From a virus (taxonomy: Duplodnaviria > Heunggongvirae > Uroviricota > Caudoviricetes), in IMG/VR virus record IMGVR_UViG_2579778899_000005: a DNA stretch of 19,870 nucleotides, one strand, 5' to 3'. Positions 2,947-9,462 of the stretch are shown here, piece after piece (position 1 is the first letter of the stretch; every line of letters begins with the position of its first letter). The position numbers and the translations under genes are program-made. Under the pieces are notes generated by a model. That model made no database searches. It was not told the origin of the DNA and was given only the letters and a program-made list of their open reading frames with translations.

Positions 2947-3507
2947 ATGAAAAATACCGATTTTGAAATCCGTACATCTGAACTGACCGCCTGCGATAAA
3001 AAACTGGTGGGTTATGCCGTTCGCTGGAACAGCCTTTCAGAAATTATCTGGGACGAATTCCGCGAACAGTTCACGCCGGGGGCTTTTGCTGACTATCTGG
3101 CGGCGGGTAATGATGTGCGCTGCCTGTATGAGCATGACTATACCCGACTGCTGGGGCGCACCAAATCCGGAACACTGGTACTGACTGAGGACAACACCGG
3201 GCTACGTTTTGAACTGACACCGCCTGATACCCAGCTTGGAAAAGATGTGCTTACGCTGGTGGAGCGTGGCGACATTACAGGAATGAGCTTTGGCTTTCGC
3301 GCATTATGCGAAGAGTGGAATATCGCGCAAAAACCGTATCTGCGCACTGTTACCGCCGCAGAACTTCGTGAAATCACGATAACGTCAATGCCTGCTTATC
3401 CCGAATCTGGCGTGGAGATTGCCCATCGTTCGTTGTTTGCACAGCACCCTGAATTACGCCCGGCAGGAAATAATCGTCATCGCTGGGCTGAACTGGCGGG
3501 GTTGTGA
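2947..3507 (+). CDS. Prohead maturation protease, HK97 (S78) family
   Basis: ATG 2947 with GGAG 2936-2939 at 7 nt spacing. Motifs GYAVRWN and GMSFGF are typical of HK97-family prohead proteases. Stop TGA 3505-3507. Confidence 0.85.
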   Translation: MKNTDFEIRTSELTACDKKLVGYAVRWNSLSEIIWDEFREQFTPGAFADYLAAGNDVRCLYEHDYTRLLGRTKSGTLVLTEDNTGLRFELTPPDTQLGKDVLTLVERGDITGMSFGFRALCEEWNIAQKPYLRTVTAAELREITITSMPAYPESGVEIAHRSLFAQHPELRPAGNNRHRWAELAGL

Positions 3508-5743: not shown

Positions 5744-6100
5744 ATGGCAAGACCACCAAAAGCCCCCGCTTACCTGGATGAAATTGCGGTCAGGCAATGG
5801 AAGGAAAAATCGCGCCAGCTTTCCGTGCGGGAAGACCTTACCCCCGCCGACTGGAGCAATCTGGAGCTGTATTGCGTTAACTACTCCATATACCGCAAAG
5901 CCGTCGAAGACCTTGCGACGCGCGGGTTCAGCATTGTTAACAGTCAGGGCAGCGAGAGCAGAAACCCCGCCCTGAGCGCAAAGGCTGACGCAGAAAGAAT
6001 AATGATCAAAATGGCTTCTTTGCTGGGTTTTGACCCGGTAAGCCGCCGCAGAAATCCACCGGAAACAGAGGAAGAGGACGAGCTTGACCGCCTGGCATGA
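5744..6100 (+). CDS. Terminase small subunit, P27-family-like
   Basis: 118 aa beginning MARPPKAPAYLDEIAVRQWKE..., with the size and N-terminal pattern of P27-family TerS. Positioned between HNH and TerL. No strong SD before ATG 5744. Confidence 0.75.
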   Translation: MARPPKAPAYLDEIAVRQWKEKSRQLSVREDLTPADWSNLELYCVNYSIYRKAVEDLATRGFSIVNSQGSESRNPALSAKADAERIMIKMASLLGFDPVSRRRNPPETEEEDELDRLA

Positions 6101-7745
6101 GTACGCAGAAGGCGTAAAAAACGGCAAAATTACGGCCTGTAAACGACTGAAACAGGCCGTTAAACGGTATTTTTCTGACCTTGAAAACCCCCTTTACACG
6201 TTCGATCCGGAGGTCGTGGAGCGGTTTATTGCCTTTTCCAGGGTGTGTCCGCACGTAAAAGGCGCAATGCGCGGTAGCCCCATTGAGCTGGAGCCGTGGC
6301 AGCAGTTCGCCTTTGCCTGCATCCTGGGCTTTAAGGTTAAGGCCACCGGACGGCGCAAATACACCAGCGCATTCATTGAAGTACCGCGAAAAAATGCCAA
6401 ATCCACGGTCGCCGCTATCCTGGCTAACTGGTTTCTGGTTATGGAAAACGGGCAGCAGGATATTTACACCGCCGCCGTGAGTCGTGATCAGGCGCGGATC
6501 GTGTTTGATGATGCGCGTCAGATGTGCCTTTTATCCCGACCGTTACGAAAGCGGGTAAATATTCAGGCACACAAGGTGATACACCCGAAAACCAACAGCC
6601 TGTTAAAGCCACTGGCAGCAAAAGCGGCAACCATTGAGGGGACAAACCCGAGTCTCGCCATTGTGGATGAATATCACCTGCACCCTGACAACGGGGTTTA
6701 TTCCGCGCTTGAACTGGGAATGGGGGCGCGTCCGGAGGGGTTATTATTTGCCATCACCACATCGGGGAGCAACGTTGTTTCAGCCTGTAAACAACACTAC
6801 GACTATTGCTGCCAGATACTGGATGGTGAAGAGGTGAACGAATCCATGTTCGTGCTTATTTACGAGCTGGATGATGAAAGCGAGGTTGACGATCCGGCGA
6901 TGTGGATAAAGGCGAATCCCAATATCGATGTTTCCGTCGATCGTGAAAAACTGGCCTCAACCATCCAGAAAGCGCGGGGTATTCCGTCGCAGTGGGTGGA
7001 AATGCTCACCAAGCGATTCAATATCTGGTGTCAGGGGGCTACGCCGTGGATGGGTAACGGTGCATGGGCGGAGTGCGCCGGAACGTTCGCGGAGGCGGAT
7101 TTATACGGGCAGGAGTGCTACGCGGGGCTGGACTTATCATCAACTAGCGATATTTCCAGCGTGTGCTATGCCTTTCCGGTCGGTAAAAAGATTATGCTGG
7201 TTTCCCGTCACTATCTGCCGGAATTTCAGCTACAGAACCCCGCCAATAAAAACCGCGCCATCTATCGCCAGTGGGTAAAGGCGGGCTGGATACGCACAAC
7301 ACCGGGTGACTGCATTGATTATGACCGTATCCGTGATGACATCATGGCGGATGCAGAGAATTTCAATATCAGGCTGGTGGGCTTCGATACATGGAACGCC
7401 ACGCACCTGAGGACGCAGCTACAGGGGGCAGGATTTGAGGTGGAGCCGTTCCCGCAAACATACCTTCGTTTCAGTCCGGCGGCGAAATCGTTCGAAGTTT
7501 TTGTTAACCGGAAGGTGATTGTGCATCGTGGCGATCCGGTGCTGGCCTGGTCAATGAGTAATGTTGTGATGCAGAGTGACGCGAACGCCAATATCAAGCC
7601 GAACAAGAAAAAATCATCCAACAAGATAGACCCGAGCGTTGCGGCGCTGATGGCGTTTGGCACATTCCAGGCAGAGCATGAGGAATTTGCATTTGATATG
7701 AGCGACAGCCACAAAGAGCGGCTTGCGGCGTTTGATGGGGTATGA
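6084..7745 (+). CDS. Terminase large subunit (ATPase plus nuclease domains)
   Basis: 553 aa. Start taken as TTG 6084 (AGAGGA 6073-6078 upstream), overlapping the terS end; start codon choice is uncertain. The C-terminal half aligns by eye with the truncated terminase fragment at 8737-9462. Confidence 0.9.
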   Translation: MTAWHEYAEGVKNGKITACKRLKQAVKRYFSDLENPLYTFDPEVVERFIAFSRVCPHVKGAMRGSPIELEPWQQFAFACILGFKVKATGRRKYTSAFIEVPRKNAKSTVAAILANWFLVMENGQQDIYTAAVSRDQARIVFDDARQMCLLSRPLRKRVNIQAHKVIHPKTNSLLKPLAAKAATIEGTNPSLAIVDEYHLHPDNGVYSALELGMGARPEGLLFAITTSGSNVVSACKQHYDYCCQILDGEEVNESMFVLIYELDDESEVDDPAMWIKANPNIDVSVDREKLASTIQKARGIPSQWVEMLTKRFNIWCQGATPWMGNGAWAECAGTFAEADLYGQECYAGLDLSSTSDISSVCYAFPVGKKIMLVSRHYLPEFQLQNPANKNRAIYRQWVKAGWIRTTPGDCIDYDRIRDDIMADAENFNIRLVGFDTWNATHLRTQLQGAGFEVEPFPQTYLRFSPAAKSFEVFVNRKVIVHRGDPVLAWSMSNVVMQSDANANIKPNKKKSSNKIDPSVAALMAFGTFQAEHEEFAFDMSDSHKERLAAFDGV

Positions 7746-8035
7746 CGAGAATGAGCGAAACCGAACTACTAAAAATAATCCGCCGCGTTACCGGAATCAG
7801 CCAGGAAGCAGGCAAACAGGAGGCCACGCAGCCGGACAGCGTGATAGCCGAAAATTACGCGCGTGTGGTGGCTGAGGTGATGCGCCGTGACGGTATCGAG
7901 CTTAACGGCGTGGATATACGCAATATACGCACCAGAGTTCTGGAGTTGTTGTCATATCGTCGCCGCGTGGAGATGTACCAGGAGAAAGAAAAAATTACTT
8001 ACCACTGGAAGAAGCCGGAGCGGTTACGACGTTAA
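7742..8035 (+). CDS. Hypothetical protein (94-97 aa), translationally coupled to terL
   Basis: ATG 7742 overlaps the terL stop (ATGA); alternative ATG at 7751. Stop TAA 8033-8035. No recognisable family. Immediately followed by a phased repeat array. Confidence 0.5.
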   Translation: MTRMSETELLKIIRRVTGISQEAGKQEATQPDSVIAENYARVVAEVMRRDGIELNGVDIRNIRTRVLELLSYRRRVEMYQEKEKITYHWKKPERLRR

Positions 8036-8041
8036 CTTGTG

Positions 8042-8090
8042 GTGACATACCGTGACGGAGAGTGACAACCAGTGACACACAGTGACAAAA
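8042..8090 (+). repeat. Five tandem GTGAC(A) motifs at exact 10 bp periodicity
   Basis: GTGAC at 8042, 8052, 8062, 8072 and 8082 (GGTGACATAC CGTGACGGAG AGTGACAACC AGTGACACAC AGTGACAAAA). One copy per helical turn, starting 7 nt after the stop of ORF 7742-8035. Confidence 0.75.
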
Positions 8091-8108
8091 AGACGGTATT
8101 TAAATAGA

Positions 8109-8137
8109 GTGGGTGTTTAATACCCCCCGTTTTTTTT
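8109..8137 (+). terminator. Possible weak terminator (short imperfect stem plus T8 run)
   Basis: GGGT (8111-8114) can pair with ACCC (8122-8125), followed by C-rich bases and TTTTTTTT 8130-8137. The stem is weak, so this is tentative. Confidence 0.35.
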
Positions 8138-8289
8138 CGTGTGGTGCATGGTCAAAATGACCACGGAGAAGATACGCACCGAAGCAGAACAATTACCGTA
8201 GGTTAAAGCGACAGTATTCACACCAGCAACCTGATTATCAATTTTCAGCCGTTCGGTGGCATCACTGGCCCCATTTTCCTGATGGGGTT

Positions 8290-8442
8290 GCGGGTTATTT
8301 GGGGGGTATTTGCGGGTTATTTTGAATGTCTCGCGGGTTACGCTTTGGCTAATATTCAAACGCATCATTTTTTAACGCATTGATATTAAAGAATAAAAAA
8401 TACTTAGCAAGCGAAGATAACCCGCTAACCCGCATAACCCGC
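8290..8442. repeat. Iteron-like repeat clusters: 3x GCGGGTTA(T) at ~22 bp spacing, an AT-rich core, then 3x inverted TAACCCGC in tandem
   Basis: Direct copies start at 8290, 8312 and 8333, with a degenerate GGGGGTATTT copy at 8301-8311. Reverse-complement copies at 8418-8425, 8426-8433 and 8435-8442. They flank a ~75 bp AT-rich segment (8343-8417). A 12 bp GTATATATATAC palindrome follows at 8451-8462. Confidence 0.75.
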
Positions 8443-8629
8443 ACTGTTTTGTATATATATACGAAAAATTGCATTCAGGGGGGTGATCGAAATTTCTACT
8501 GCCTCTTATCTCTTTGAGTGCTCACCTCGTCAGATTGTTACACACAAGAAATAAAAAATGCTTCGCGATGGTAGGTCGAATCACTGTATCAAAAAACGGT
8601 GTGTATCAGCATTAAAACAATACAGATAC

Positions 8630-8650
8630 GTGTATTGCGCTGTGTATTGC
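8630..8650 (+). repeat. Tandem GTGTATTGC repeat (2 copies, 12 bp apart)
   Basis: Copies at 8630-8638 and 8642-8650, with a related GTGTATC at 8601-8607, in AT-rich non-coding DNA. Confidence 0.6.
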
Positions 8651-8736
8651 TTGATGATTTATAAAGACTGTTTTTTCATGTTAAACGATTGATATACAGG
8701 TGATTTTAAAAAACTTGAAATATTCTTACCAAACAC

Positions 8737-9462
8737 ATGAATGTGTGGGTAACAGCAGAGTCTGCCTGGATGGACATGATTAAGTGGGAGAAGTGCGAAT
8801 ACATTGCCCCACGACATGAGCTGAAAACGTATCCCATGTGGGTCGGCGTTGACCTTGCTCATAAGATTGATATCTGTGCGGCGGCAAAACTCTGGCGAAC
8901 GGATAACGGGCATGTTCATGCCGATTTTAAATTCTGGCTTCCGGAAGGACGGCTGGAACGATGCTCGCGGCAGCAGGCAGAACTTTACCGGAAGTGGGCG
9001 GAGATGGATAAGCTGATTCTGACGGATGGTGATGTTATCGATCATGCTCAGATAAAAAGTGACTTACTGGAATGGATTGGTGGTGAAAACCTCAGGGAAC
9101 TGGGATTTGACCCGTGGAGCGCGATGCAGTTCAGCCTGGCACTGGCTGAAGAAGGGATACCGCTGGTGGAGGTTCCGCAGACGGTTCGCAATCTGTCAGA
9201 GGCCATGAAGGAAACGGAATCACTGGTCTATGCCGGGCGTTTCCATCACAGCAATCATCCGGTCATGAACTGGATGATGTCTAACGTTACGGTAAAACCG
9301 GACAAAAACGACAATATCTTCCCGAATAAATCCACGCTGGAAGCCAAAATCGACGGCCCTGTTGCGATGTTTACAGCAATGAGCCGGATGCTGGTCAATG
9401 GTGGTGAACCGGAGCTGGATCTGTCTGAACATCTGGTCAGCGTGGGCATCCGCTCGCTTTAA
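8737..9462 (+). pseudogene. Terminase large subunit remnant: C-terminal nuclease half only, N-terminal ATPase domain absent
   Basis: The 241 aa ORF aligns by eye with the C-terminal ~240 aa of the intact TerL at 6084-7745 (NVWVTAESAWM vs NIWCQGATPWM; VGVDLAHKID vs AGLDLSSTSD). An in-frame stop at 8716-8718 and a lack of SD upstream indicate truncation near 8720-8740. Confidence 0.7.

Follow-up and report, generated by a model that had tools for sequence, protein, structure and literature searches.

Does the small gene that closes a packaging operon act on the repeated DNA directly behind it? The question is raised by a stretch of E. coli chromosomal DNA of 19,870 nucleotides (nt), IMG/VR record IMGVR_UViG_2579778899_000005, which as a whole is referred to as the window. 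In it, a gene that we call ORF94 follows a terminase large subunit gene (terL), and a phased array of GTGAC pentamers follows ORF94. A preliminary description of this DNA had joined gene and array into one functional pair, with ORF94 as a DNA-binding accessory protein for packaging, excision or partition. We find that ORF94 is a conserved, satellite-specific terminal late gene of enterobacterial phage-inducible chromosomal islands (PICIs) and capsid-forming PICIs (cf-PICIs). The array is facultative, and its coupling to the gene is loose. The features at issue are:

6084 to 7745, plus strand: satellite terL, the upstream cistron; a complete TerL of 553 amino acids (aa) with ATPase and nuclease (PF03354 and PF20441)
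7751 to 8035, plus strand: ORF94, 94 aa; an alternative, non-conserved start at 7742 gives 97 aa
8042 to 8086, plus strand: five GTGAC pentamers in exact 10-bp phase, starting at 8042, 8052, 8062, 8072 and 8082
8087 to 8137, plus strand: intrinsic-terminator-like end of the late operon from a terminator scan, with the tail AAAAAGACGG, a hairpin (8111–8125) and a T8 run (8130–8137)

ORF94 as the last late gene

The longest open reading frame (ORF) at this position runs from 7742 to 8035 on the plus strand, encodes 97 aa and ends with TAA at 8033–8035. Its ATG (7742–7744) overlaps the TGA of terL (7743–7745). The ATGA at 7742–7745, on which the preliminary description had based an overlap of start and stop, is indeed there, but the conserved start lies at 7751 and overlaps nothing. 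Across 86 loci the protein begins with M-[S/T]-E, which is the in-frame ATG at 7751, and the Prokaryotic Genome Annotation Pipeline (PGAP) likewise calls this second ATG as the start. The ATG at 7742 is limited to this terL context and reads ATA in one variant. In the window the conserved ATG stands 5 nt past the terL stop, a spacing that is probably near enough for coupling of terL and ORF94 with no overlap of start and stop. Elsewhere, the gap to the upstream stop is 13 nt in EcCIEDL933, 2 nt where a DUF1441 gene precedes, or 73 nt, and in the islands with the 73-nt gap ORF94 has its own GGGGG Shine-Dalgarno sequence. What is kept across islands is co-transcription with the terminase gene and not the overlap. 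The proposed co-expression with the terminase is therefore borne out by ORF94 being the last cistron of a terminase/packaging operon, in conserved placement.

The ORF94 homolog is always the last gene ahead of the att site and the last late gene of the PICI. Three kinds of gene are found upstream of it: terL, in cf-PICIs at four att sites (yifB, clpS, phoQ and prophage terL); a DUF1441 TerS-like gene; and, in classical PICIs, a gene for a 180-aa "terminase small subunit". An identity of the 'terminase small subunit'/DUF1441 genes with the crystallised RppC was considered and dropped, as a PDB sequence search gave no match. The PICIs L092 and L116 carry a perfect lambda-type cosN about 75 nt ahead of the ORF94 homolog, in reverse orientation. 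The perfect lambda cosN of classical PICIs reads GGGCGGCGACCT, and the L116 copy is at about 7470–7500. Island L005 carries cosN upstream of its terS-like gene (2741) and a partial second copy upstream of ORF94 (about 3425–3450), possibly the cos1/cos2 pair reported for EcCICFT073.

The operon of EcCIEDL933, the prototype cf-PICI, holds two hypothetical genes. One is a 60-aa ORF between HNH and terS, the other is WP_000133425.1, the ORF94 homolog after terL. According to the bioRxiv report 10.1101/2022.09.08.507074, mutating "hypothetical gene 1792" severely cut transfer of EcCIEDL933. Because one hypothetical gene is mentioned there and the 60-aa ORF is the one inside the module, "gene 1792" is probably the 60-aa ORF rather than the ORF94 homolog.

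Judged by its substitution pattern, ORF94 is a real gene under strong purifying selection. The median ratio of nonsynonymous to synonymous rates (dN/dS) is 0.20 over 1,542 sequence pairs, and third-codon positions are about twice as variable as first or second ones. Of 5,426 complete E. coli genomes, about 750 (~14%) hold homologs with 78–99% nucleotide identity. A large protein collection holds 944 clusters at 90% identity, every one named "hypothetical", and the GTDB species representatives give a single related locus. The family is narrow, because an exhaustive profile search of 1.84 billion representatives returned 38 proteins, mostly fragments. In the same representative library, a protein of 2,175 aa (P0143) matches profile residues 29–61 of ORF94 in 11 separate stretches; this may be a repeat artefact or a misassembly. 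ORF94 belongs to phrog_1561, listed as function unknown, with residues 1–94 aligned to profile positions 1–93 of 93 (E = 7.9e-50).

A short subfamily of 62–63 aa keeps only the C-terminal two-thirds of the protein (…ELNG.D…IRT…YQW[KR]KP…R). Its hosts are Klebsiella, Enterobacter, Citrobacter and Pluralibacter. It is probably phrog_7271, a 63-position profile that matches only the C-terminal residues 38–94 of ORF94 (E = 8.7e-08). At the short-form locus L089, a Klebsiella cf-PICI, the short gene comes directly after terL and is followed by a terminator, arm-type repeats and an ORF in the integrase position. L089 is GenBank PQ569648, 'Klebsiella phage P12620-1', a record of 106.5 kb with a cf-PICI-like stretch; the record may hold a satellite, or its assembly may be composite. 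Doubled CTGTATAAACA motifs in it are followed by a 408-aa ORF where the integrase is expected, an identity taken from position.

ORF94 is predicted to be a small basic helical hairpin. With an alignment of 57 sequences, the AlphaFold2 model reaches a mean predicted local distance difference test score (pLDDT) of 80, and more than 90 for residues 31–70; the first pass with 18 sequences had given 55, which the short-subfamily sequences raised to 80. Helices are predicted for residues 3–14, 29–46 and 53–81 and are followed by a disordered basic tail. Arg and Lys are abundant in the protein, and its C-terminal tail Y-x-W-K-K-P-E-R-L-R-R is invariant. In the modelled form, such a hairpin with its Arg/Lys tail could bind nucleic acid. 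The preliminary description had suggested a ribbon-helix-helix or helix-turn-helix (HTH) fold, to be checked by structure prediction, and the model of three helices points to neither. It had also counted the lack of a DNA-binding fold against its own proposal, and at the level of prediction such a fold is indeed lacking. Because it contains no beta strand, the fold is not the ribbon-helix-helix of Arc/MetJ/CopG/ParG, for which Foldseek also returned no match. For the HTH and winged-helix excisionases (Xis, AlpA and MerR-like recombination directionality factors), we found no profile match and no structural neighbour. Pfam and NCBIfam gave no meaningful match to ORF94 at permissive thresholds; the sole NCBIfam line, for the homolog in EDL933, is irrelevant and at 13.9 bits (E = 0.042) stays below the 99-bit cut-off. 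The PDB sequence search yielded three chance-level matches only (E 0.27–0.98), and PADLOC, which covers known anti-phage defence, yielded no match at E up to 10.

The phased GTGAC array

The array had been described as five phased GTGAC copies right after the ORF, and this description stands: the copies occupy 8042–8086 with an exact 10-bp period. From base composition, about 6e-11 such five-copy phased arrays are expected by chance in the window, where GTGAC otherwise occurs at background density (45 found versus 37 expected). Eleven sequence variants of the array were recovered. In units 2–5, all 20 pentamer columns are invariant, while 5 of the 15 spacer columns vary (Fisher p = 0.009). The copy number is 3, 4 or 5 and changes in exact 10-bp steps. 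Invariant pentamers and 10-bp steps therefore point to selection on in-phase pentamers, and by this comparison of variants we take the array to be a real cis element under selection. Pentamers kept in phase imply that a protein binds on one side of the DNA helix. The tail AAAAAGACGG is kept in nearly all array variants; the L041 copy reads AAACAGACGG. The array sits between the ORF94 stop codon and the terminator-like hairpin, and the RNA fold of the array/terminator region has −12.9 kcal/mol.

A role of the array in excision, packaging recognition or replication did not hold up, since the arm motif, cos and the iterons lie elsewhere and have different sequences. The array is not an integrase arm site: the arm motif of this clade is TGTATTGC at 8630–8650, with about 640 bp between array and core. 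The same array is found in islands at unrelated att sites. It is not cos or cosB, as no cosN-like sequence is near it in the window; the cosN of classical PICIs precedes the terS-like gene or ORF94 and is not at the array, and the same array accompanies unrelated terminase systems. It is not the replication iteron of the island, whose origin repeats are GCGGGTTA and TAACCCGC and lack GTGAC. matS, the binding site GTGACRNYGTCAC of MatP, is a 13-bp palindrome. It shares the GTGAC half-site, but the array copies are direct repeats 10 bp apart with no GTCAC partner, which removes matS as a candidate. A consensus scan proposed a promoter, GTGACA-17-TAGAGT, at 8082–8110. This was discarded because its start would fall inside the terminator hairpin; the −10 element is not kept in other array variants. 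Mimicry of the resident helper's origin is not supported, in that the Rac-like helper prophage of strain rl0044 has no phased GTGAC array; this check covers one related genome, whose island itself lacks ORF94 and the array. With hits allowed up to E = 1, Rfam gave no match for 7700–8760.

When IMG/VR was scanned for exact matches to four GTGAC copies in phase, at least 120 contigs were found, and six of the matches listed are this array. Unrelated viral contigs (L093–L212, IMG/VR) contain at least four further families of (C/T)GTGAC arrays phased at 10 bp. In one family, the array is located at the 5' end of a DnaT-domain replication gene in lambdoid prophages, with YdaT- and lambda-P-like genes as neighbours; in another, it separates terL from portal in uncultured phages.

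Relation between ORF94 and the array

Gene and array are linked: arrays with a AAAAGACGG tail have an ORF94 homolog upstream in 6 of 6 IMG/VR cases among the matches listed and in all E. coli examples opened, with the upstream gene of L092 counted as a homolog by size and position only. The proposed pairing of gene and site is nevertheless not obligatory: of the 57 ORF94 loci whose downstream sequence reaches 450 nt or more, 21 have the array, and identical proteins occur with and without it.

We propose that ORF94, as the last gene in the late operon for capsid and packaging, would be co-transcribed with the satellite terminase gene and, in the window, probably translated by re-initiation after terL. 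The array would be a separate, facultative platform for protein binding between the ORF94 stop and the operon terminator. The likeliest single protein to bind there would be ORF94 itself. As a coat on the array, it would organise the transition from the late operon to the ori-like/attP end. The tail-bearing arrays with ORF94 upstream, the rl0044 island that lacks both, and the basic disordered tail suggest such binding, which from these sequence comparisons we consider possible but doubtful. We infer that ORF94 may bind nucleic acid at all, and likewise any particular downstream role.

Several observations weigh against ORF94 as the array's binder. The array is absent at most of the counted loci, including two (L014 and L016) whose proteins are 100% identical to the window's ORF94. 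On any reading, the core function of ORF94 cannot depend on the array. At L004, L008, L043 and L085 the array lies 90–400 nt past the ORF94 stop, and it is absent at L089, the one short-subfamily locus examined for it. The model shows no recognised DNA-binding fold, and Foldseek searches of PDB and BFVD returned nothing below E = 0.3. Because other array families occur in unrelated contigs, the GTGAC motif alone points to no binder; among the matches listed, the unrelated phage contigs with GTGAC arrays show no ORF94-type motif within 900 nt upstream. The linkage could also reflect common descent of neighbouring DNA.

ORF94 could instead be a packaging or late accessory protein that works through protein contacts or at the DNA end, with another protein on the array. 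Its constant place next after a terminase-type gene, of whatever type, agrees with this, as do its presence in most islands without the array, the nearby cosN in some classical PICIs, the model without a DNA-binding fold and the other neighbours of GTGAC arrays elsewhere (the DnaT-domain gene, terL/portal). What tells against it is that no candidate for the alternative binder was found and that the terminase-type genes of the three kinds found upstream are unrelated to one another, which speaks against a single specific partner among them. Moreover, if "gene 1792" of EcCIEDL933 is the 60-aa ORF, its transfer defect is not that of ORF94. We hold this account of ORF94 only tentatively, and with similar reserve we name as the other binder a host regulator of the winged-helix type or a helper or satellite protein that recognises 10-bp direct repeats. 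An accessory role of ORF94 and binding of the array by ORF94 are about equally likely. A role of the array as RNA or no function at all is less likely than either. As RNA, the array would be an unstructured GUGAC run in the untranslated 3' part of the late transcript, either a site for an RNA-binding factor to land on or a processing or stability element. The array does lie between the stop codon and a terminator-like hairpin with T8, the tail AAAAAGACGG is part of the terminator, and GUGAC copies cannot pair together, so that only a weak fold results. The exact 10-bp period and the unit-sized indels, however, indicate helical phasing on duplex DNA and not an RNA motif, Rfam is empty for the region, and in islands of the L003/L005 type the T-run past the hairpin is missing while the array is kept; an RNA role is very unlikely. 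Somewhat less unlikely, though still improbable, is an array left over from or produced by repeat expansion in a recombination-prone variable zone, functionless and beside an unrelated conserved gene. The region after the packaging genes is known as the variable region of cf-PICIs (10.1101/2025.02.11.637232), and the array is often absent, displaced or decayed, with only a decayed remnant at L058 and L063. Against this stand pentamers that are invariant in at least seven sequence variants while the spacers change, and an array that persists beside ORF94 alleles of only 78–100% identity. We give little credence to a further possibility, that ORF94 and the array form an undescribed module. In it, ORF94 would be a sequence-specific DNA-coating protein of a new fold, by which the satellite genome is marked to be replicated, packaged or segregated. 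Alternatively, the array would imitate the GTGAC iterons of the DnaT gene and recruit or titrate a helper initiator.

Directionality factors such as lambda Xis (X1/X1.5/X2), P2 Cox (Cox boxes) and 186 Apl bind phased direct repeats and are winged-helix or HTH proteins. The window resembles these systems in having a small basic protein beside same-orientation sites about one helical turn apart, near att. It differs from them in that the ORF94 model contains no winged-helix or HTH fold and about 640 bp separate the array from the crossover, which puts it beyond any usual attP arm. In addition, the island already has AlpA-type genes by int, and the array occurs at different integration sites. Replication iterons share with the array the tandem same-strand arrangement and the one-turn spacing, but the island's own iteron is GCGGGTTA and not GTGAC. 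Among the satellites closest to the window, EcCIEDL933 carries the ORF94 homolog after terL but has a different repeat field and no GTGAC array.

In Enterobacteriaceae, genes are widely transferred by PICIs and cf-PICIs, whose late operons have been studied one gene at a time. About 14% of complete E. coli genomes carry ORF94, for which no fold or family is known and to which apparently no role has ever been assigned. Neither the gene nor the array is named or tested in the accessible portions of PMC10111431 and 10.1101/2022.09.08.507074. The surrounding element is already known; the ORF94 family and the array are undescribed, which is a modest surprise. If ORF94 or the array affects satellite transfer, it would be one more required part of a well-studied system. 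If ORF94 has no effect on transfer, it would simply be a conserved accessory gene.

The satellite end and its repeats

Downstream of the terminator, the following features define the right end of the element:

8288 to 8442, no strand assigned: second origin-type iteron set from a repeat search, three copies of GCGGGTTA, an AT-rich stretch and three copies of TAACCCGC
8630 to 8650, plus strand: doubled TGTATTGC motif, the attP arm motif of helper-embedded PICIs, by sequence match and published distance from the core
8719 to 8732, no strand assigned: attR junction with a core of about TTACCAA, the right end of the satellite, where the interrupted prophage terL begins
8737 to 9462, plus strand: 3' fragment of the prophage terL, nuclease domain only (PF20441 positions 64–283 only)

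The surrounding element is a capsid-forming PICI of the "helper-embedded PICI" kind inside the terL of a lambdoid prophage. The capsid-forming type is described in bioRxiv 10.1101/2022.09.08.507074 (Alqurainy et al.), the helper-embedded configuration by Tommasini et al. 2023 (PMC10111431). The window's element agrees with these descriptions in gene set, in insertion into terL and in the doubled TGTATTGC at the published distance; truncated terL halves and the junction complete the assignment. PMC10111431 gives tgTGTATTGCantgTGTATTGCa as the diagnostic attP arm motif, about 81 bp from the attP centre. In strain rl0044, a locus 98% identical to the window contains an island of about 15 kb within the prophage terL. 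The gene order in it is integrase, HTH/AlpA-like, Bro-N, Icd, DUF927 primase, SSB and PerC; major capsid protein, protease, portal, connector, HNH, P27-type TerS and TerL come next as late genes. This island, at the same prophage-terL site, has neither ORF94 nor the array. Because it lacks both, the module of ORF94 and array is dispensable for the island.

The island is inserted in, and co-oriented with, the prophage terL, of which truncated halves flank it on both sides. Homology to the intact terL of phage phi467/606R7 begins at 8719, and attL and attR were compared in L001. Because of the arm motif at 8630–8650 and the intact-terL homology from 8719 onwards, ORF94 and the array lie at the attR end of the satellite. 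PGAP labels the prophage fragment 'terminase TerL endonuclease subunit, missing N-terminus', and portal, protease, capsid and tail genes of the lambdoid prophage follow it. The TerL noted upstream of ORF94 in the preliminary description is complete, but it is the satellite's own and not that of the surrounding prophage. In near-identical islands, the counterpart of 6084–7745 is annotated as terminase large subunit.

The zone between late operon and attP is dense in putative protein-binding DNA, with GTGAC arrays, arrays of the integration host factor (IHF) consensus and the second iteron set, and is a candidate for cis-acting functions. The iteron set occurs twice in the island, after the primase gene and at the right end past the late operon, and the TAACCCGC repeats are inverted. 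The first set lies directly after the DUF927 primase gene (L001 11740–11870) and comprises two copies of GCGGGTTA, an AT-rich stretch and four copies of TAACCCGC. EcCIEDL933 has the same architecture, with the two sets adjacent (L090 46190–46320 and 46350–46510). Satellite P4 has a two-site ori/crr arrangement of replication iterons, which the twofold set resembles.

In EcCIEDL933 (L091 6762–7170) and in most of L009–L088, tandem units of about 50 bp are found within about 500 nt after the ORF94 stop, in place of the GTGAC array or ahead of it. Each unit carries a minus-strand IHF consensus (WATCAANNNNTTR) over a TAACCCG-like core, then a small palindrome that differs between units. The consensus is enriched about 90-fold there: 44 unique segments hold 49 sites, compared with 0.012 per 510 nt for the flanking coding DNA. 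A minus-strand ORF of 83 aa (8117–8368), which overlaps the GCGGGTTA iterons, is a hypothetical protein in one genome and has no family match. It is probably not real, because the homologous EDL933 stretch has no annotated gene. The window also contains seven Chi sites (GCTGGTGG), at 3255, 4489, 7373, 9162, 9602, 9958 and 19262. All are on the plus strand and none on the minus strand, co-oriented with the late genes of both satellite and prophage.

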